The position numbers were made by a program, and so were the translations under genes. From assembly GCA_024686575.1 (NCBI GenBank), contig GCA_024686575.1_4863.1: a DNA stretch of 64,000 nt; one strand, 5' to 3'. Numbering within the stretch: the first letter of the stretch is position 1; each line of letters starts with the position of its first letter. The stretch is from a phage. The notes under the pieces are model-generated. The model was not told the DNA's origin and ran no database searches. It saw only the letters and a program-made list of their open reading frames with translations. Positions 7,347-51,246 of the stretch are shown here, piece by piece.

Positions 7347-8207
7347 CTACGGTTTATAATCAACTTCGTTGATCTCACCGCAAGCCGGACAAGCAATGTT
7401 CATTGTCTGCGAAGTGTAGCGATGGGTTCTCGGTACTGTAGCGACATGGTTGCGGTTACAGCCGGAACACGTCCAACCGACCACTGGTGCCTTCGATTGT
7501 TTCGGGGCAGGAGTGTCTTCTTTTAACAATGCGACTACCGCGTGAAATTTACGAAGTTCTGCGTTAACATGCGCTTCCCAGTCGGCGTCCAAACGCGCCG
7601 TGAACCAACGTTGAATCTTCTGGCCAAGGCCGTCTTGATTTTCTTCTTCATGGGACATCACAAACTTGAGATTTGCGCGACCCCACTGCACAACGTTCTC
7701 TACTTTAATCCCGTCTACGGTGTCGCTGATTGGCGTATAGTTAAAAGTTGGATAGGTGAGATAACAAGCTTCAGCTGTTGCAAAGACCGTATTGCCTTCA
7801 AACAGCGCCATGGCCTCATCGCCCTTAGCATCCTTCTGTGCGGCTTCCAATCGTGGGCAATGGAAACCTTCAAGTTGCTGGATTTTGGTCGTTAGCGCAT
7901 TGATACCCTGCAGCACAGCGATACGCTTTTTGCTGTCTGTAATGGTTGCCATTACCTTGCACAACGCGCGCGAGATAGCGCTATACATTGACGTTTTGCG
8001 GTTTTCATCGAGGAAACGCTCTTGCTGCTCCAGGTCGTAAGAAGACAGGCCGTAGCTCTGCCCTTCGACCAACACGACGTAAGTACGACGTTTGTCGCGG
8101 TCCAGCTGGACAATGGCCGCATCGGTTAACGGATCGCTAGCCAATACTTCGTGGTCGGGAGGTAGGGGGAAATCTGAACTTTTGATGAAATCAGTAATGC
8201 TGTACAT
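7347..8207 (-). CDS. hypothetical protein with C-terminal zinc-ribbon (CxxC...CxxC)
   Basis: 286 aa; C-terminus CSGCNRNH...CPACGEINE has two CxxC pairs; terminator hairpin directly downstream. Confidence 0.55.
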   Translation of the reverse strand: MYSITDFIKSSDFPLPPDHEVLASDPLTDAAIVQLDRDKRRTYVVLVEGQSYGLSSYDLEQQERFLDENRKTSMYSAISRALCKVMATITDSKKRIAVLQGINALTTKIQQLEGFHCPRLEAAQKDAKGDEAMALFEGNTVFATAEACYLTYPTFNYTPISDTVDGIKVENVVQWGRANLKFVMSHEEENQDGLGQKIQRWFTARLDADWEAHVNAELRKFHAVVALLKEDTPAPKQSKAPVVGWTCSGCNRNHVATVPRTHRYTSQTMNIACPACGEINEVDYKP

Positions 8208-8209
8208 TT

Positions 8210-8626
8210 TTAGTCCTTAAGAGAGTTAATAAAGTCATCTAAACTAATATCACGGAATGGGAAGTAAACACCTTCAAGCGGGATCGTGTAGTGTTCACTA
8301 ATGGCACGTTGCCAATCCAGAACAGTTGCGGGGTAGTTCACAACCTCAAAGTTAGGATGCGTAATTGGCGGAATTGCGTTGTAAACATAGCCGTTGATAT
8401 TTTTCGATGGGAACGCTGCACGGAACTTCGGCTCCATGTAGAACATTTCCTCTTTTACTTCCTGGCCTTCCCAGAAACGATAACCGCCCTTACCGTCAGG
8501 AATATAAATCGCCTTGTCACGGGGTATAGGGGAATCCTTGGATAGCGGAACAAATCGTCCGTACTGGTCAAGAACCATCCAGTCGGTGTCATTCTTTAAA
8601 TACTTTTGGAGCTTCTCATTAATCAT
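8210..8626 (-). CDS. hypothetical protein
   Basis: 138-aa ORF packed 2 nt downstream of the previous gene. Confidence 0.5.
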   Translation of the reverse strand: MINEKLQKYLKNDTDWMVLDQYGRFVPLSKDSPIPRDKAIYIPDGKGGYRFWEGQEVKEEMFYMEPKFRAAFPSKNINGYVYNAIPPITHPNFEVVNYPATVLDWQRAISEHYTIPLEGVYFPFRDISLDDFINSLKD

Positions 8627-8685
8627 TTTTCACGTTCCTTAGGCAAAAAATAATACCACCCGTAGGTGGTATTAAATTATCTATA

Positions 8686-8874
8686 CTACTTCTTCCCGAG
8701 TTCCCCACGGAACTTCGCCAGCTCTTCTTTCCAGTCCGGCTTCGGTAGTGCGCTTTTCGGCCCCACGATAAATGTGCGTTCTGAGGTTTGTGGATTCACC
8801 TCTACTGTTTCGTTATCTTCCACTTCACGAAGCATGATTCCGTTTTTACCATCGTAATTAACTAAAACGCCCAT
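8686..8874 (-). CDS. hypothetical small protein
   Basis: 62-aa ORF; its start overlaps the stop of the upstream small gene. Confidence 0.35.
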   Translation of the reverse strand: MGVLVNYDGKNGIMLREVEDNETVEVNPQTSERTFIVGPKSALPKPDWKEELAKFRGELGKK

Positions 8875-9056
8875 TAGTAAATCTCCTGCTGCATTGGAAA
8901 TACATTACCTGTCGGTGAGACAAGTAAAACTTGCGCGGTAACGTGAACGATTTCTTCTTCGTCCTGACGACGAACACCGTTAGTGAGATTATCCCACTCA
9001 CGTTTAAAACGCGGGTGAGATAAGAACTCGGCAAACTCCGTATCAGAAAAGTCCAT
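8874..9056 (-). CDS. hypothetical small protein
   Basis: Internal ATG at 9054-9056 overlaps the TAA of the upstream small membrane-protein gene (TAATG coupling); the track ORF 8874..9074 starts further upstream. Confidence 0.35.
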   Translation of the reverse strand: MDFSDTEFAEFLSHPRFKREWDNLTNGVRRQDEEEIVHVTAQVLLVSPTGNVFPMQQEIY

Positions 9057-9199
9057 TAGCCGCGACCTGTACACATGGCAACAGAGTTACCGTTATCGAT
9101 GCACTTGTTGTAATCTTGAGTTACAGTGATGGACAGTACCGCGAAAGCAACAACAGCAACGATGGCAAAGATGGCACGTTTATGGTTACGAGTTAACAT
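9056..9199 (-). CDS. small hydrophobic (single-pass membrane) protein, 47 aa
   Basis: Not in the track (<60 aa). ATG at 9197-9199 preceded by AAGGAG at 7-nt spacing; translation MLTRNHKRAIFAIVAVVAFAVLSITVTQDYNKCIDNGNSVAMCTGRG has a clear hydrophobic helix; 26-mer motif about 50 nt upstream. Confidence 0.45.
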   Translation of the reverse strand: MLTRNHKRAIFAIVAVVAFAVLSITVTQDYNKCIDNGNSVAMCTGRG

Positions 9200-9250
9200 G
9201 GCAATACTCCTTTAGATTAATAGTCGATTGAGTTGATAGATTGTCTTCTA

Positions 9251-9276
9251 TCACCTAGGTAATATATATCTGAAAT
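9251..9276 (-). promoter_or_regulatory. conserved 26-mer TCACCTAGGTAATATATATCTGAAAT, copy 1
   Basis: Identical 26-mer also at 17753-17778; shares the TAATAT..TATCT core with the 15-mer; upstream of the small membrane-protein gene. Confidence 0.5.
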
Positions 9277-9295
9277 TATTTTTATTCAGAGTACA

Positions 9296-9347
9296 CCCTC
9301 TATAACGCTCTCAAACGCGTTTTGAGAGCTTTTATCACTATAGAGGG
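9296..9347. repeat. nested near-perfect palindrome (operator- or origin-like)
   Basis: Outer arms CCCTCTATA / TATAGAGGG and inner arms GCTCTCAAA / TTTGAGAGC around a CGCG centre, in a roughly 240-bp noncoding region. Confidence 0.5.
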
Positions 9348-9397
9348 CGTTCTACCGTTAGAGTGGCTTTAGAAGGTTGTGAGTGCGTTTAGAGGGC
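9341..9397. repeat. short direct repeats TTAGAG(G/T)G, four copies (iteron-like)
   Basis: TATAGAGGG, GTTAGAGTGG, TTTAGAAGG, GTTTAGAGGG spaced 12-19 nt, next to the palindrome. Confidence 0.35.
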
Positions 9398-9432
9398 TAA
9401 AATAAAGAGACCTGGTCTCACAAGGAGACCAG
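9396..9432 (-). terminator. rho-independent terminator
   Basis: Hairpin CCTGGTCTC-ACAAG-GAGACCAGG followed on the minus strand by a T-rich tract; downstream of the stop at 9441. Confidence 0.55.
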
Positions 9433-9440
9433 GCACACAT

Positions 9441-10238
9441 TTACATCAAATCCAGGCTCTGTGAGACCGCAACTTCCGGTTCACTGATACCGCTGGTCAC
9501 TGACAATGTAAAGCGACGATCGTTAATCACTTCAACTGCTTCGCTCGCACGCAGTGAATACTTGTCGGCGATTGGCAGTACACTGTTATCGTTCTGCGGC
9601 GGCAGAATCTGTGCCGGGAACGGAATGTACGAGTTGAAAGTGATATACGGACCGACCTGCATCATCGGGAACACTTCGTTCACGTTATTTGACATCCCTT
9701 CATCCGAAGAGATAACGGAGTGACGCAGACAGGCACGCAGGCCAACGGTGTACTCCGGATCGCGCGATTCGCCGATCAGTGCGAAACGGAACACATTGAA
9801 ATCGTAGTCGTCTGCAGCGAAGTGTTCTGGCAGGATACGCTGTACGTATTCAGGGTAAGTGGTCACGTCACCCGGAATAACATTCACGGCGAGTTTCTGT
9901 GCCAGGAAATACGCATTCGCGAAACCATACTGACCCGCCAGCGCGGCTGAAATCGGTGCAGTGGTTACGCAGTGCAGGAACAAGTGATAACCCAGCCCGC
10001 CTTTATCTTCGATTGCCAGGTCCTTCTTACTCTGCACACCGTCAGCAGTATAAATAACTGCCACTGTCTTATCCAACGTCGACGCCATGACAAAATCCAA
10101 CTGCACCTCACCGCTCTGCGGTAGTACCTTAACCAGACGATCCCAGAGCTTGGTCGGTTTGGTGAAGTTAGCGGCTTCGTACGCATCAATGTCGAGAACA
10201 GTTTGGCCGGTCATGCGAAAGGTGTGAATCGCTTTCAT
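9441..10238 (-). CDS. hypothetical protein
   Basis: 265-aa ORF; terminator hairpin 9411-9432 just downstream. Confidence 0.55.
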   Translation of the reverse strand: MKAIHTFRMTGQTVLDIDAYEAANFTKPTKLWDRLVKVLPQSGEVQLDFVMASTLDKTVAVIYTADGVQSKKDLAIEDKGGLGYHLFLHCVTTAPISAALAGQYGFANAYFLAQKLAVNVIPGDVTTYPEYVQRILPEHFAADDYDFNVFRFALIGESRDPEYTVGLRACLRHSVISSDEGMSNNVNEVFPMMQVGPYITFNSYIPFPAQILPPQNDNSVLPIADKYSLRASEAVEVINDRRFTLSVTSGISEPEVAVSQSLDLM

Positions 10239-16890: not shown

Positions 16891-16948
16891 TATAAATACT
16901 CCTTAAGATTAATGGTCGATTACATACGGTTTCAGGCTAACGTAATAT

Positions 16949-17710
16949 TTACGCTGCTGGTTCTTCAGCGGTTTTCACTTCAACTGGTTTCATCAGCGAG
17001 TTCGCACAGTCGAAGATAGCATCCAGGAAACCACGGAACGGCTTCATGGCTTCACGCTGGGCGTTCTGACGTTCTTCTTCAATTGCTTCTTCTTGCGCCT
17101 GAATTTCTTCAGCAGTCAGCTCCGGGTGTTCCGTCATGCTTTCTGCCAGGGTCATCACTTTCGGCTGCGCATTCCGAATCGGAATACGGCGGATGACCTT
17201 GGTGATATTCCCGAGCTTCATGCCACCCAGCGCGGTTTCGAACAGCGTACCGAAATCTTGCAGTGGGTCTTCGCTGATTTCCAGTACCGCCGGAGTCGCA
17301 ACCAGACCAAAGGCAATGACCAATTCAACAGCAGTGTCGGTGACGTGCACAGCGAACGGGGTGTCTTCCATCTGCAGGTAATTGTTACCATTATAGGTCA
17401 CCGGAATGAATTTGATTTCTTCCCCTTTCTTCAGGCGCAGTGTGTCGACTGCGGCTTTGTACTGAACTTCGTACAGTTCCGGTTTAACACCGTCAACGTT
17501 ATCCAGTGTAAAGAGCAGGTCGCCAACCGCCATACGGCGCGGCAGTTTGCGTTTGTTGATTTCGCGCAGCCAGACTTGTAAGCCGGTGAATTGAATTGGG
17601 GACAGTATAATTTTAAAGCCGTTGGTTGCTTGCAGGATAGCACCGTCGTCTTCGCTACGTTCGATAGAGCCATTAGCCAGAGTAAGCAGATTGATAGTTT
17701 TCATTTTCAT
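16949..17710 (-). CDS. hypothetical protein
   Basis: 253-aa ORF, ATG start with AAGGAA upstream; 26-mer motif 43 nt upstream. Confidence 0.5.
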   Translation of the reverse strand: MKMKTINLLTLANGSIERSEDDGAILQATNGFKIILSPIQFTGLQVWLREINKRKLPRRMAVGDLLFTLDNVDGVKPELYEVQYKAAVDTLRLKKGEEIKFIPVTYNGNNYLQMEDTPFAVHVTDTAVELVIAFGLVATPAVLEISEDPLQDFGTLFETALGGMKLGNITKVIRRIPIRNAQPKVMTLAESMTEHPELTAEEIQAQEEAIEEERQNAQREAMKPFRGFLDAIFDCANSLMKPVEVKTAEEPAA

Positions 17711-17752: not shown

Positions 17753-17778
17753 TCACCTAGGTAATATATATCTGAAAT
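17753..17778 (-). promoter_or_regulatory. conserved 26-mer TCACCTAGGTAATATATATCTGAAAT, copy 2
   Basis: 43 nt upstream of the start at 17710. Confidence 0.5.
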
Positions 17779-41748: not shown

Positions 41749-43854
41749 TTACAACTCAATTACCACAGCGGCTCCTAGGTCATCGTACAACGATGCCGGG
41801 ATTTTGTACTCGGTATAAAAACCAACGCGATCGATATTCCCCTGCTGTCCTTCAAACAACAACATCGGAATTGCCGAGCGCAAACTAATGAGCGTGTTGT
41901 GATCGACAAACCGTTTCCCTGTAGCGTTAGTAGAATCCTCACTGTCAAATCCTACTGCCGGGAACGGATTGGTTGGCGACTCTACACGAGATATCGCCAA
42001 CATAATCGCAATGTGCGTCATCGGTATACCACTCAGCTTACGCTGGATATACTTAAACGTGTCCATCAACGCATAAGTACACTGTTTCTCTGTAGCACCA
42101 CCCATTTCAACCAACGTCACCGGTTTCACACGACCTTGTTTCTTGTTCAGCTTCACAGTCGAGGCTGTGTTGATGATTTCCACAATGTCTTCGTTCTTAT
42201 CGGCAGCAATCGAACGGAGCTTGGTTTCTAAGCCGGCTACGAACTCCGCCATCGATTCAGAACGGTTGGTGTAGACCAGGACCGGGTGTTTCGGGTTCCA
42301 TCCTTTTAAGGGGATTTCTACCGTCTTCTTCTCGATACGAATGTTCGCTCGTTGTTTCAAGAAGTAGTGCAGGAACGGTTTAGAGAAGTTCCCACAAACA
42401 CCCATTCGCACATCGATAGAATCCGCAGCGATTATCTGCCCATCTTCTAAACGACGTTGGAAAGTTAAGTCGGTGATTTCTGGTAATGCCGTTTCATCAA
42501 TTGCATCGAGATCTTCATGATACGCAATCTGGCTCAGCTCCGAATAAACTTTGTCGGTAACAACCAACTCGTATTCTGACCAATTCCCACGCTGTGGTTT
42601 TGGCAGCAAGCACAACCCTTTCAGAGAGTTATGTTTGTATTCGGTCATATACTCACGCATACGTGGGGTGAGTACCAGGTTGAGCAGATAACGCAAGAAG
42701 TCAAGGTGCTTGGTAGAGAGAATTCCCTGTGTACCCTTTTCCGAGATGGACGTGGATGCCAGGTGACCTGGTGACGTACCTTCAGAGAGGTTATAAATCA
42801 AATCCCCCATACAGGTCGCACAGATGGACTGATTCGCCATCTCTTTACAGGTCATGGCACTACGGAAGACCAGCGGTTTGCCAACCAGGTCTGCGTATCC
42901 GCCTTTCTCAAATCGCAACCACGGACCATTATCGCCTTCTAAACGATAACGCATCCCCACCATCGCTTTATAGGCACGCTCATCCAGCTGCGTATCCTTA
43001 AACGTGTAGCGGTGTGCGTGTGTTGTACCGCAGTCGTCGTACGTGAAATACATCAGTACGTTTGCTGCCAGCTGCAGTTTACGTGAGGCGTATTCTGCTT
43101 CGGCAATCTTGTCAGTGTTGTACAGGTGGGAACGTGAAGTTGCACCAGATTCTTTCAAACGCGAAATAACCGAATGCATTCCGGTAAAGAAGCCTTCCCA
43201 CACCTGATTGGTGTATACACGTGAGTCAATTTCTGACGTTTTGCCGCGCACGAACGCTTGCAGTACCTGGTTCATCTTCACGGTACCGTCCAGTACCGAC
43301 ATTACGACTGGGTTATACCGCAGCGCAGGGTCTTTGAAGATTTTCTCGATAAGCTTATACGCTTCTTCAACCATATCCTGACCATCTTCATCGTAGCCAG
43401 TAGGATACTGCACTTCCCACTGACGGATGAGTTCGAAGTTCGGGTGGTCGTAGATCTCCATCATCGTATCAAAGTCGATTGTCGTACAATAGGACAGCAA
43501 GTTCTTCACTGTCATGTTGAACGCATCGGCGTAGACATGTTGACTCAGGATATAACGCGTTTCAGCAAGGTCGACACCTGCTTTACGGGCCAGTACCGCT
43601 GCTTCCGACATAAAGTCCAGATGCAGGTCATCTGTTGCTACCTGACCTGGACGATACGCCATGGTCGATGGAGTGGGCACCTGCGGATACAGACGCGACA
43701 CACCCCAATACGGCCAGCTGAGTTTGATGTGGCGACTAGACATTTCCAACGACTTACCATCGTCGAAAGTCACGTAATAACGCCCGCGTAGTTTCCACAC
43801 CTGATCAGAGTTAAGCATACGCAAATCACGTACGTGTACAGAACGACCCGCCAT
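41749..43854 (-). CDS. multisubunit RNA polymerase beta'-like subunit, C-terminal part
   Basis: 701 aa; STSISEKGTQGILSTKH resembles the beta' trigger loop (SIGEPGTQLTMRTFH); ATG overlaps the TAA of the upstream beta-like gene (TAATG). Confidence 0.6.
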   Translation of the reverse strand: MAGRSVHVRDLRMLNSDQVWKLRGRYYVTFDDGKSLEMSSRHIKLSWPYWGVSRLYPQVPTPSTMAYRPGQVATDDLHLDFMSEAAVLARKAGVDLAETRYILSQHVYADAFNMTVKNLLSYCTTIDFDTMMEIYDHPNFELIRQWEVQYPTGYDEDGQDMVEEAYKLIEKIFKDPALRYNPVVMSVLDGTVKMNQVLQAFVRGKTSEIDSRVYTNQVWEGFFTGMHSVISRLKESGATSRSHLYNTDKIAEAEYASRKLQLAANVLMYFTYDDCGTTHAHRYTFKDTQLDERAYKAMVGMRYRLEGDNGPWLRFEKGGYADLVGKPLVFRSAMTCKEMANQSICATCMGDLIYNLSEGTSPGHLASTSISEKGTQGILSTKHLDFLRYLLNLVLTPRMREYMTEYKHNSLKGLCLLPKPQRGNWSEYELVVTDKVYSELSQIAYHEDLDAIDETALPEITDLTFQRRLEDGQIIAADSIDVRMGVCGNFSKPFLHYFLKQRANIRIEKKTVEIPLKGWNPKHPVLVYTNRSESMAEFVAGLETKLRSIAADKNEDIVEIINTASTVKLNKKQGRVKPVTLVEMGGATEKQCTYALMDTFKYIQRKLSGIPMTHIAIMLAISRVESPTNPFPAVGFDSEDSTNATGKRFVDHNTLISLRSAIPMLLFEGQQGNIDRVGFYTEYKIPASLYDDLGAAVVIEL

Positions 43855-46091
43855 TATTTATCCTCCCGAATTGGACGCACTAATTCAAAACCTTCACAGC
43901 GATGGATGTTACGTATCATCCTGTCAATCTGCGAATCACCCATTGGCAGTTTCTTACGATCGACCAGCACCCCTGGATTGGTTGGTGTTGGCGAGTTATA
44001 CAGCCCCGTTACGATCGCACGGTGTACCGCAGGGTTATTAGCGCGGTCATGAGTTTCGGGGAAGTTGCCCGGACCAAAGCCGTCGGTAAGACGCTGCTCG
44101 GAAGGACCACCCCACTTCAACCCTTTCAGGTTAATCGGATATGAACCACGTCCTTGGTTGGATGCATCAATACAACCCAAATAGTTCGTGTACATCGACG
44201 AGATACTGGAGAACTCACGACCGGTTTTATCCAGGCGCAGAGTCTCTACCATGCCGACGTAAAACTGGTTCTTCGTCCACTCTTTCTCACCCTGATAGTT
44301 AGTAATCAGTAGCTTAGACTTGCGTGGTGCATACTCGCCTAGAGCACGGCAGATTTCTACCTGGGTAGCATTCAATTCGTGGGGAAGCCAGATACGAATC
44401 GTGAAGTCGTAAATCTCTTTAAAGAGTTCCAGACGTGACCCAGTATCCGGGTGACTGGCATTGAGATAGAATGTCCAGCGTGGGTTATAGCGATCGATAT
44501 AGTCCATCAGGATTTCCCAGGCTTCATCAACCTGGTTGGCGGCAAGTAAAGGTTTCAACCGCATCTTCAACTGCTCGGATGCAGCAGACCAATACATGTG
44601 GAACAGCGCAGCATAAGTCGAACGACGAATTACGGCGTTCATGGAACGAATGACATGCACACGTTCTCCGAACTCGTTAATCGGCATTTCTTCATCAGGC
44701 CGCACTGCGCCCACGATACCTTTTGTACCTGAACGGTCGGTGATTTTCGATGAGACGGTAACTGGGATTGGATAACGTACCACGATGCGTATCGTGTAAC
44801 TACCAATTGGGTCCCAGAGACCACGCTGAACCGGCTGCGCCAGTTTGTTTAACACGTTCTTATCAGCAGAACGGTTATACTCGCCTTTACGCATGGCTTC
44901 ATCGTATTCACGACCAATCTCTTCACGGAAGTCGTTATAGACTTCATACGTCTCAGAACAGAACGCCTTGTCAAGAATCTCAAACGCTTTCGGTGACCAG
45001 ACGATATTCTTGTCCTTGGACATCGCAAAATAGAACCGTACGATATCATTGTAAAAACGTTTCAAAGCGTTCGCGTAGTGATCTAACTCGCGTTTGTTCT
45101 CTTCGGTACATGCGATATTGTTAACACCACGATCGCATTTGGTTTCGTCCCGCCATACCTGAATATCAACGACACGAGAACCGGTACGTTCCATCTTTTC
45201 AAAGTCGCCAGCCAGTCGCGCTTTGTAATGCTCAGGGTCGGCATCAACATACTCACAACGGTCGAAGTGCGGAGAGACATGTTGTGTTTCACCTACGTGC
45301 GAGTCAATGGCTGCCCATAGCTTATCGAAACGGCGCGCGGCAATAACCAACCCATCATCACGAATTGCCTGTCCTTTATTGGGCAGGTACTGTGGTCGAC
45401 GAACGCCATCAATACCCGTTGTCCCATACGTATCAAGCAGGTACTCGTCGTCGCGCAAGGTAAAGTCGATTGCACGCAAACCATAAGCGTGCATCGCTTT
45501 CGCTGCAGTTTCGGAGATGGTGTACGAGTCCTCGATAATGTCCGGGTGCGACATCGTCACGGTGTGCAGGTTGACCCCATCGACAAACTCACCGTCTTTC
45601 TGTGCCGGCAGCACGGTAAGCATTTCATCTTTTTCCAGGTGCTGCGTCTGCCCGCGCAGCAACGCCTGAAGTTTCCCAGTAGCCTCTTTCTTAGACGAGA
45701 AAATGTTATCGTGGTTGGTGTAATACTTAATATCGATTACATCAATCATCACTTTGCGCTGGTTGGTTAAATCTGCGCGCGTGAAGAAGATAACATGTTG
45801 GAGCGGTTCGTGATCCCCTTCACGACCATAGCGTGCAAAAACAGCTGCACGAGTAACACCTTCTTTGGTTGTGTAACTGCACACGGTACCACTGTCTTCC
45901 ACGATATCGTTAAAACAATAATCGTGGTAGTTCACATCAGCGCCGGTAAAATGGATAGTCGGATCTGGATTGTCCAGTGGTACCGCCGACTTCATATGTC
46001 CACCCACCATTGAGGCACGTGCCCCAGATACGCCAGTGATATTCACCTCACGGTCAGCAACGCTTGACATGAGTTCGACTGGTGTTTTCAT
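43854..46091 (-). CDS. multisubunit RNA polymerase beta-like subunit, C-terminal part
   Basis: 745 aa; DRSGTKGIVGAVRPDEEMP resembles the beta GRHGNKGVVSKI..EDMP segment, with a downstream YVGMVETLRLDK (compare YMYMLKLNHLVDDK); AAAGGAG RBS; 15-mer motif 31 nt upstream. Confidence 0.7.
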   Translation of the reverse strand: MKTPVELMSSVADREVNITGVSGARASMVGGHMKSAVPLDNPDPTIHFTGADVNYHDYCFNDIVEDSGTVCSYTTKEGVTRAAVFARYGREGDHEPLQHVIFFTRADLTNQRKVMIDVIDIKYYTNHDNIFSSKKEATGKLQALLRGQTQHLEKDEMLTVLPAQKDGEFVDGVNLHTVTMSHPDIIEDSYTISETAAKAMHAYGLRAIDFTLRDDEYLLDTYGTTGIDGVRRPQYLPNKGQAIRDDGLVIAARRFDKLWAAIDSHVGETQHVSPHFDRCEYVDADPEHYKARLAGDFEKMERTGSRVVDIQVWRDETKCDRGVNNIACTEENKRELDHYANALKRFYNDIVRFYFAMSKDKNIVWSPKAFEILDKAFCSETYEVYNDFREEIGREYDEAMRKGEYNRSADKNVLNKLAQPVQRGLWDPIGSYTIRIVVRYPIPVTVSSKITDRSGTKGIVGAVRPDEEMPINEFGERVHVIRSMNAVIRRSTYAALFHMYWSAASEQLKMRLKPLLAANQVDEAWEILMDYIDRYNPRWTFYLNASHPDTGSRLELFKEIYDFTIRIWLPHELNATQVEICRALGEYAPRKSKLLITNYQGEKEWTKNQFYVGMVETLRLDKTGREFSSISSMYTNYLGCIDASNQGRGSYPINLKGLKWGGPSEQRLTDGFGPGNFPETHDRANNPAVHRAIVTGLYNSPTPTNPGVLVDRKKLPMGDSQIDRMIRNIHRCEGFELVRPIREDK

Positions 46092-46121: not shown

Positions 46122-46136
46122 AGATAATATCTATCT
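46122..46136 (-). promoter_or_regulatory. conserved 15-mer AGATAATATCTATCT, copy 3
   Basis: Exact 15-mer 31 nt upstream of the RNAP beta-like gene start (46091), in the divergent region shared with the + gene at 46158. Confidence 0.55.
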
Positions 46137-49611: not shown

Positions 49612-51246
49612 TTAAGAATTAAACCATTCAACTTCTTCTAACTTGCGACGTGCATTCAACACCATAAACTCCGCCAGGCTATTGTGCAGTGACAAGTGAG
49701 GTATATAGTTTGGCTGATCCGTCTCACACTTCAGCAGCGCAGCTGCTTCTGGTGTAGCCCTGAGATGGAACAGATACGGGTTGATGTGATCCTTGTGTAA
49801 CAAGGTCAGTGATTCCCGTGGTGTAGATTGCGGTTCGAGATTACGCGGGTTGCGATACTCCTGAAGATAATATCTATCTAAATCTGCTTTGAGTTCAGAT
49901 CGAATTGGGTCGGCTGCATAACCGGCAGACATCTCAGAACGCACCATATTGCAACTTAACAGTTGCGCAACGTCATACATTCCATAATTGAGATAAGTTG
50001 CCTGTGCTAACGCCATGCCGTAGCGAAACGCTTCTGGTCCACATTCGGTATACGTCTTATAATGCGCGCTACGATGGAGTGCTAATGCGACTAACCATTC
50101 GTGGAGCGTATAGACAGGACCGTCGTGTGTTGCCAGTTGCGAATCAATCAATAACTTAACATCTGCTGGAGCGGCATTATCCAGGCGCATTGTTTTCAAG
50201 AAAGAGCGGTATTCTTTAAATACGTACTCGGTACGGACGTATTCTTTCATCTGGGCAGGAGAACGTGCCTGCACCAAATCCATGGCGTTTATCTTACCCT
50301 TTTCGCCATTGAATATCACACTTTCTGGATGCGCTTTTAACAGCACCGGCTGGTTAGAGATTTTGTTTGCAAAACCTGTTTCAATCTCTTGTTTAACCAG
50401 AAAATACATGCCGGTGACGATATTGTTGTTAACCATGATTTCAACCGGTAATTCACCACCGACTTCACGGACAGCCAACAATTTAATAATAGCATACGCC
50501 AGGATATAATCTTCCATCATATCCGTGCCATAGCCCCGCACAGTAGCCAGTACCGACAAACTGGTGCTGTTCGTACCTTTGTTTGCCAGTTCTTTTTCTA
50601 CCTTTTCCATCACTGTCTGTAGGAACCCACGCAGTTTCGGAATAGCAGGTAAAGACATGACTTCTGTGTCTTGAAGCATCTCCAGACAGTATGTCAGATT
50701 GTACACCATTTTCCGATGTGTTTCGATTGGCAAGTTCTTACCTATCGGGAACGTCCCCATGGTGAGGAACACCGGAATATACGGTTTAATCATCAGGACC
50801 AGTATCAACAACTCGTAATAGTCCGGACGAATGTACGTCATCGCTTCCGGATAATTACTGTTCATTTCATCGTGCGTATCTTCCATGTTCTGCGGAATCC
50901 ACAGCTTATCGATGGGATACAGCTTACGATACACTTCGGCCTTGTGGAACTTCGCAATCGTCTGCACAATCTTCGGCATGTGCTTACGCTGCGTTTCCGT
51001 CGATTCGTTTGCCAGCTCGTCCAGCATCAGATACGCCATGAACAGTTCATCTTGTTCGTCTGGCGTTAAATAATCCCACACGCGTTGTAATTCCATGAAG
51101 AGAATGTTGTCGCGTGCAATCTGTTTACCTTTAACAGTGATGTAGTCGGGTGCGTTGTTATCCTTCCGATAACGTAAGCCAATAAATGAGACCTCTTGAC
51201 CATGATGCTCGATTGTCATCCGGTCTTTAATCTTCGTAATTTTCAT
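49612..51246 (-). CDS. hypothetical protein
   Basis: 544 aa, ATG with GGAG RBS; 15-mer motif 35 nt upstream; a second copy of the motif lies inside the 3' part of this ORF. Confidence 0.55.
   Translation of the reverse strand: MKITKIKDRMTIEHHGQEVSFIGLRYRKDNNAPDYITVKGKQIARDNILFMELQRVWDYLTPDEQDELFMAYLMLDELANESTETQRKHMPKIVQTIAKFHKAEVYRKLYPIDKLWIPQNMEDTHDEMNSNYPEAMTYIRPDYYELLILVLMIKPYIPVFLTMGTFPIGKNLPIETHRKMVYNLTYCLEMLQDTEVMSLPAIPKLRGFLQTVMEKVEKELANKGTNSTSLSVLATVRGYGTDMMEDYILAYAIIKLLAVREVGGELPVEIMVNNNIVTGMYFLVKQEIETGFANKISNQPVLLKAHPESVIFNGEKGKINAMDLVQARSPAQMKEYVRTEYVFKEYRSFLKTMRLDNAAPADVKLLIDSQLATHDGPVYTLHEWLVALALHRSAHYKTYTECGPEAFRYGMALAQATYLNYGMYDVAQLLSCNMVRSEMSAGYAADPIRSELKADLDRYYLQEYRNPRNLEPQSTPRESLTLLHKDHINPYLFHLRATPEAAALLKCETDQPNYIPHLSLHNSLAEFMVLNARRKLEEVEWFNS
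49865..49879 (-). promoter_or_regulatory. conserved 15-mer AGATAATATCTATCT, copy 4 (inside a coding region)
   Basis: Exact 15-mer embedded in the 3' part of CDS 49612..51246, 266 nt upstream of the next gene start (49599). Confidence 0.4.

Follow-up and report, generated by a model that had tools for sequence, protein, structure and literature searches.

The window, a stretch of 64,000 nucleotides of phage DNA, is about 98% identical to SPN3US, a jumbo phage of Salmonella (genus Seoulvirus, 240 kb) and a distant relative of phiKZ. In the window, the DNA of an SPN3US-like jumbo phage, the minus strand carries three small genes that, together with the signals flanking them, probably form a transcription unit of their own, about 600 nt long and matching genes 66, 67 and 68 of SPN3US (Table 1). 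A preliminary description of the locus had reported a trio of small overlapping genes headed by a 47-aa ORF; the trio lies on the minus strand and is conserved in related phages. With a 1.1-kb query around it 39 phage records were matched, 34 of them at an identity of at least 95%, SPN3US and SEGD1 both reaching 98.3%. Both records of SPN3US list the ORFs as the hypothetical proteins SPN3US_0066, 0067 and 0068 (RefSeq tags ACQ60_gp200, gp199 and gp198), whose amino acid identities to the window products are 100%, 93% and 100%; gene order, overlaps and flanks are alike, and there is no substantive difference. The annotation of phage JN03 omits the three genes. It had also been claimed that a 60-aa cutoff causes the first gene to be missed. 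A length cutoff alone does hide the gene, but it has not been overlooked: the annotations of SPN3US and most relatives include it. The genes are therefore already catalogued, and what is added here is mainly their expression context and the evidence of selection.

Table 1. Features of the gp66-gp68 locus and related elements elsewhere in the window (positions in the window; minus-strand features are given in the direction of reading)
Feature	Position	Strand	Remarks
Upstream gene, SPN3US gp65 homologue	10238..9441	minus	ended by its own terminator
Intrinsic terminator of the gp65 homologue	9434..9410	minus	10-bp stem, 6 G-C pairs, T-rich tail
Non-coding spacer	9290..9400	both	four CC(C/T)TCTA(A/T)A copies and a hairpin
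Hairpin GCTCTCAAA/TTTGAGAGC	9304..9332		9-bp stem, within the spacer
Promoter-like motif TTTCAGATATATATTACCTAGGTGA	9275..9251	minus	exact 25-mer, putative phiKZ-type early class, in 240-bp upstream spacer
Motif core TATATTAC	9266..9259	minus	identical core upstream of phiKZ genes
Stem-loop TGATAGA/TCTATCA	9253..9234	minus	inferred 5' end of the transcript
Box TCGACTAT (TCGAC(T/C)AT)	9227..9220	minus	8-12 nt 5' of the ribosome-binding site
Shine-Dalgarno AAGGAG of gene 1	9212..9207	minus	7 bases before the ATG
Gene 1 (SPN3US gp66 homologue)	9199..9056	minus	47 aa, translation MLTRNHKRAIFAIVAVVAFAVLSITVTQDYNKCIDNGNSVAMCTGRG
Gene 2 (gp67 homologue)	9056..8874	minus	60 aa, ATG at 9056, stop TAA 8876..8874
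Gene 3 (gp68 homologue)	8874..8686	minus	62 aa
Intrinsic terminator TAATACCACC-TACG-GGTGGTATTA and TTTTTT	8674..8645	minus	10-bp hairpin (8674..8651), 12 bases after gene 3
Second exact copy of the 25-mer	17777..17753	minus	directly after a terminator; a hairpin and a gene of 253 aa (17710..16949) come next
Further TCGAC(T/C)AT box	16919..16912	minus	same box type

The starts of the second and third genes overlap the preceding stops, as had been described, both junctions reading TAATG (9058..9054 and 8876..8872) with an overlap of one base each. The TAA stop of gene 1 occupies 9058..9056, and its last A doubles as the first base of the gene 2 ATG. A GTG at 9074, to which the ORF listing extends the frame, was considered as the start of gene 2 and rejected, because the alignment of the homologues, all of which start with M(D/T)FSD, and the SPN3US annotation agree on the ATG at 9056. 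Overlaps of the TAATG type are frequent in this densely packed genome, where several other gene pairs have a common boundary coordinate.

All three products gave full-length matches to PHROG families, namely 8574 for gp66 (E 1.7e-28), 14868 for gp67 (E 1.1e-36) and 16804 for gp68 (E 1.4e-32), all labelled as of unknown function, and the genes lie between the gp65 and gp69 homologues just as in SPN3US. Pfam and NCBIfam searches with the three proteins and three neighbours yielded nothing significant, the PHROGs gave unknown-function families only, a sequence search of the three proteins against solved structures (PDB) returned chance-level matches (E > 0.2), and an Rfam scan of 8500-9500 had no match. 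Among the neighbours, the homologue of SPN3US gp70 (7347..8207, minus strand), reported in SPN3US as an essential non-virion protein, ends in about 45 residues with a CxxC...CxxC segment that has weak, sub-threshold matches to families of small zinc-binding proteins, namely PHROG 6417 'translational regulator' (E 0.006) and the YnfU family (E 0.1). Word-indexed homologue searches retrieved close relatives only, in SPN3US-like phages or in Salmonella assemblies carrying such a phage. Several homologues come from contigs of about 240 kb that are filed as parts of Salmonella enterica assemblies, which suggests that whole SPN3US-like genomes are present in bacterial genome submissions via a carrier state or contamination.

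The three ORFs are very short, of unknown function and omitted from the JN03 annotation, and might on these grounds be taken for chance open frames or over-annotation of a non-coding spacer. The comparison of eleven diverged loci that belong to four genera (Seoulvirus, Erskinevirus, Wellingtonvirus and Machinavirus) makes this reading extremely improbable and effectively refutes it. Where present, the genes lie 3' of the gp65 homologue and before a helicase gene in all eleven loci. In codon comparisons with the window, pS was 0.47-0.89 for all three genes, near saturation, and pN 0.06-0.37; dN/dS was 0.05-0.40 where dS could be computed, and third codon positions were the most variable. Since the amino acids are conserved across four genera while synonymous sites are near saturation, the ORFs are not products of chance, and all three genes are under purifying selection on their protein sequence. 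Invariant family motifs, conserved starts and stops and the strong ribosome-binding site of gene 1 likewise speak against chance frames.

Upstream, the terminator of the gp65 homologue marks the boundary of the three-gene unit. It is followed by a non-coding spacer with four copies of CC(C/T)TCTA(A/T)A, three of them direct on the minus strand (9396, 9376 and 9347) and one inverted on the plus strand (9296), together with a hairpin. In Asesino, Huxley and the metagenomic relative L022 the promoter is preceded by related elements (...GCGTT...AGAGCGTT), and a longer form, CCCTCTAAAACGC..., occurs in SPN3US also at 137,578 and 240,071, both within long non-coding regions. The repeats could be protein-binding sites or iterons.

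Between this spacer and gene 1 lies a 25-nt promoter-like motif, of which the window has two exact copies against 0.00 expected by chance. Variant sites of the form GAT(A/T)GATATTATCT start on the minus strand at 1642, 2447, 46135, 49878, 51294 and 59881, all intergenic except that at 49878, and the one at 46135 precedes by 44 nt the gene of the non-virion RNA polymerase beta subunit (46091..43854). For a count over a complete genome, SPN3US was assembled from five pieces; it has six near-identical copies of the 25-mer and, of the GATAGATATTATCT type, about ten variants. Every one of these sites is on the main coding strand and points the same way as the genes, and with one exception they are intergenic. 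There too a variant is placed 44 nt upstream of the gene for the non-virion RNA polymerase beta subunit, given as SPN3US_0034 in PMC7411985, which is an indirect hint of early timing. In 13 out of 13 related loci the motif stands ahead of the homologous small-gene cluster, the copy of phage Kwan being a GATAGATATTAC variant. In the first 50 kb of phiKZ the core TATATTAC occurs seven times after a T-rich ...AGAT segment, always intergenic and co-oriented, and one of the seven genes, PHIKZ054, has a mapped early promoter (PMC8244752). According to PMC7598289, the early promoters of jumbo phages that encode RNA polymerases share a conserved AT-rich motif near -10; an AT-rich block is also described for the early promoters of the virion RNA polymerase in PMC11512511, where the promoter class was at times off expectation in phage 201phi2-1. 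Because of the core shared with phiKZ and the published AT-rich -10 block, we infer that the 25-nt motif is an early promoter that would be read by the virion RNA polymerase, with transcription probably starting near 9254..9252. A scan of the minus strand for sigma-70 promoters gave nothing relevant.

The putative transcript would begin with a short stem-loop. At the same position a hairpin can form in 12-13 of the 16 promoter copies, and its stem sequence changes from copy to copy (mean z -2.6). Over the whole leader, the copy ahead of gene 1 was not more stable than shuffled sequence (z +0.44), and it is therefore the comparison between copies that carries the argument for a 5' hairpin. The leader further contains a TCGAC(T/C)AT box, which is common to about ten SPN3US genes at 8-12 nt upstream of the ribosome-binding site. 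This box is kept before the gp66 homologues of Erwinia phages, even when these are inside longer operons or just 3' of a terminator or gene, and it may serve as a signal for translation or RNA processing or as a second promoter element. At the other end the unit is closed by an intrinsic terminator, and similar ones (hairpin and T-run) are found directly 3' of the gp66 homologue in Huxley and in the metagenomic relatives L021 and L022, all of which are devoid of gp67 and gp68.

The strong ribosome-binding site attributed to the first gene was borne out: the pairing of its AAGGAG region with the 3' end of 16S rRNA amounts to -8.2 kcal/mol, a value reached by 1.6% of random 22-mers. The corresponding values are -3.2 kcal/mol for gene 2, with 45% of random 22-mers as good, and -7.4 kcal/mol for gene 3 (3.5%), whose AGGAG sits within gene 2. 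Gene junctions in the relatives are either TAATG-type overlaps or one-base gaps (TAAGATG). Translational coupling had been proposed for the whole chain. It is plausible. Gene 2 has the TAATG junction and no usable ribosome-binding site, so that its translation is probably dependent on coupling to gene 1; gene 3 has a site of its own.

The three genes differ in their distribution. In tblastn searches of a phage collection gp66 was found in 63 records that span four genera and include 27 Erwinia jumbo phages, gp67 in 47, one of which is a chance match at E 0.4, and gp68 in 41. Occurrence is thus nested (gp66 > gp67 > gp68), and the locus is a variable small-gene cluster with gp66 as its constant member. 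In Kwan an unrelated gene of 113 aa comes after gp66 and gp67; Huxley and pEa_SNUABM_6 have a gene of about 240 aa 3' of gp66, in Huxley beyond the terminator; a different small gene takes this place in pSal-SNUABM-04, Caitlin, ChrisDB and pEa_SNUABM_9; and in L021 and L022 the terminator follows gp66 directly. Several Erwinia phages have one or two additional small genes between the promoter and gp66. One of these, in Erwinia phage Asesino (locus L010, 1175-1420), codes for an 81-aa protein with two hydrophobic stretches, which has homologues in loci L009 and L014 and is absent from the window. Since unrelated genes replace gp67 and gp68 in some genera, the trio is probably not an obligate three-part system.

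This distribution bears on the possibility that the three proteins work as one complex or pathway, for instance a membrane sensor with two cytoplasmic partners acting as an anti-defence module. The gp67 protein is small and strongly acidic, a combination shared by many phage inhibitors, and the genes seem tightly coupled and keep a fixed order wherever all three are present. Nevertheless, their occurrence is nested and not joint; Kwan, Huxley, pSal-SNUABM-04, Caitlin, ChrisDB, L021 and L022 do without the full trio, and only about eight residues of gp66 would be reachable by cytoplasmic partners. A joint complex is accordingly considered unlikely, and the preliminary notion of one functional cassette found no support, given the uneven record counts and the Machinavirus-type phages that have other genes or a terminator after gp66. 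The gp67 protein (pI 4.6, net charge -6) is hydrophilic and predicted to be soluble, as is gp68, which is near neutral. Their AlphaFold models, both of modest confidence, present two helices and a small hairpin for gp67 (pLDDT 71) and four strands and a helix for gp68 (pLDDT 69), and neither of these models gave a Foldseek match in the PDB below E = 1. Our best guess is that gp67 and gp68 are small cytoplasmic accessory proteins that share the unit of gp66 in some lineages only.

The gp66 protein contains a hydrophobic stretch at about residues 9-26, and the helix previously proposed for it is supported by a Kyte-Doolittle mean of 2.92 (17-residue window, residues 10-26); in 13 out of 13 homologues the best 17-residue mean was 2.06-3.04. 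The eight residues preceding this stretch include three Lys/Arg and no acidic residue. They are followed, after the helix, by a neutral tail of 21 residues with the pattern C-x9-CTGRG. Both cysteines, a G-N-S motif and the terminal CTGRG are invariant in 18 out of 18 family members and a D-Y is nearly so, while the helix sequence drifts freely across the family and the N-terminal eight residues are also variable. An exhaustive profile search among 1.84 billion representatives gave six true members, all of 45-50 aa and with the same tail. Two long ankyrin-repeat proteins from the same search were judged spurious, as they match only a short ...NKC.DNG.SP... stretch. A lipoprotein nature was also considered for gp66 and discarded: a helix cysteine is present in some homologues only and absent from the window protein, and no canonical lipobox is conserved. 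The charge of +3 on the N-terminal segment, which is free of acidic residues, against a neutral tail favours an N-in topology. Thus gp66 is probably a single-pass inner-membrane protein, with its basic N-terminus in the cytoplasm and its tail in the periplasm, where the two conserved cysteines would probably be closed by a disulfide.

A protein of this kind might damage the membrane, either as a holin-like or antiholin-like lysis peptide or as a depolarising toxin resembling Hok/Gef. Hok/Gef peptides are of similar length (about 50 aa) and share the general layout predicted for gp66, in which a basic N-terminus is followed by a single membrane helix and a short Cys-containing outer tail. The two differ in that gp66 is more conserved in its tail than in its helix, which points to specific binding and not to pore formation, and in that gp66 had no match to the Hok/Gef family (Pfam PF01848), even with E allowed up to 1, nor to any other Pfam or NCBIfam model. 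No lysis annotation was matched by gp66 in Pfam, PHROG or NCBIfam, and the locus is not beside the endolysin gene, which in SPN3US (135,425-136,042) is about 70 kb from the trio. It would also be odd for a cell-killing protein to have an early-type promoter together with a strong ribosome-binding site. The hok/sok system is typically under antisense RNA control. Together these data render a membrane-damaging role improbable.

The genomic surroundings raise another alternative, in which gp66 would be an assembly factor, an inner-membrane anchor that starts or tethers proheads, and the trio a part of the head and neck module. In T4, gp40 is said to start or tether prohead assembly at the membrane. 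The three-gene unit is inside a block of head and neck genes, which counts against an envelope role and could point to assembly: it is flanked by gp64/gp65 and by gp70, an essential non-virion gene, with the major capsid gene nearby, and gp66 keeps the same position in every relative examined. In SPN3US, gp64 acts in head-tail joining (PMC5105663), and from 5-10 min post infection proheads are seen beside the inner membrane (PMC7411985). On the other hand, only about eight variable residues of gp66 are predicted to be cytoplasmic, and the invariant Cys-pair tail is predicted to face the periplasm, a compartment devoid of capsid proteins. With an early-type promoter and a terminator of its own, the unit would not be read together with the structural genes, and the SPN3US literature searched does not mention gp66, gp67 or gp68, including among virion or essential proteins. 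An assembly function is for these reasons judged to be of low probability.

The explanation that we prefer, and regard as likely on the whole, is that of an early SPN3US-type unit of three genes with coupled translation, whose first product acts at the envelope. The RNA polymerase carried by the virion would read the 25-nt motif, and the genes would then be expressed soon after infection. Transcription would start near 9253, ribosomes would load at the AAGGAG of gene 1, gene 2 would be translated by termination-reinitiation at TAATG, and gene 3 either via coupling or from its own AGGAG. Once in the inner membrane, gp66 would expose its short basic N-terminus to the cytoplasm and its disulfide-closed tail to the periplasm. 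As the tail is the conserved part, its target is probably in the cell envelope, and the best guess is that gp66 is an early accessory factor acting on this structure, a non-virion protein that may exclude later-arriving phages or modulate a host envelope protein; any specific envelope target would be named with low confidence. The earlier guess of host takeover or anti-defence would fit with an early-type promoter.

A bolder extension of this explanation, which we hold to be rather doubtful, is that gp66 founds a family confined to one clade of jumbo phages, whose invariant C-x9-CTGRG periplasmic loop binds an enterobacterial envelope protein early in infection, and that the promoter, hairpin and TCGAC module is a portable cassette for swapped genes. 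If this were true, one purpose of the binding by gp66 could be to shut out competing phages. As it stands the significance of the locus is slight, as these are catalogued and ordinary hypothetical genes of a well-studied model jumbo phage. Being the constant member of the cluster and having a conserved part that is probably periplasmic, gp66 offers a compact target in searches for an envelope protein of the host that binds it; gene 2 would be a clean natural example of coupling dependence, and the promoter motif shared with phiKZ may serve as a simple predictor of early units in SPN3US-like phages.

Small early membrane proteins are used by other phages in dealing with the host or with competitors. 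Imm and Sp of T4 participate in superinfection exclusion, and gp56 of SPO1 blocks cell division. By analogy only, gp66 resembles them in being small, in its predicted membrane location and early expression and in belonging to a compact operon of small genes; it differs in being shorter and in having no sequence or profile similarity to them, and no counterpart of its predicted periplasmic Cys-pair tail was found among proteins of this type. At the level of gene organization, variable small genes of T4-type phages are flanked by PeSL cassettes, each an early promoter with a stem-loop. In the locus described here a repeated promoter with a stem-loop likewise heads a small-gene cluster of varying content, although the two arrangements have no sequence relationship and would depend on different polymerases. 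The closest likeness for the promoter-like motif itself is to the early promoters of phiKZ, with which it shares the AT-rich block, the core, the preceding T-rich ...AGAT, the intergenic and co-oriented placement and the repetition along the genome. In contrast to phiKZ, the copies of the window and SPN3US are conserved over a longer stretch, into TAGGTGAG, and are then followed by the hairpin and the TCGAC(T/C)AT box.
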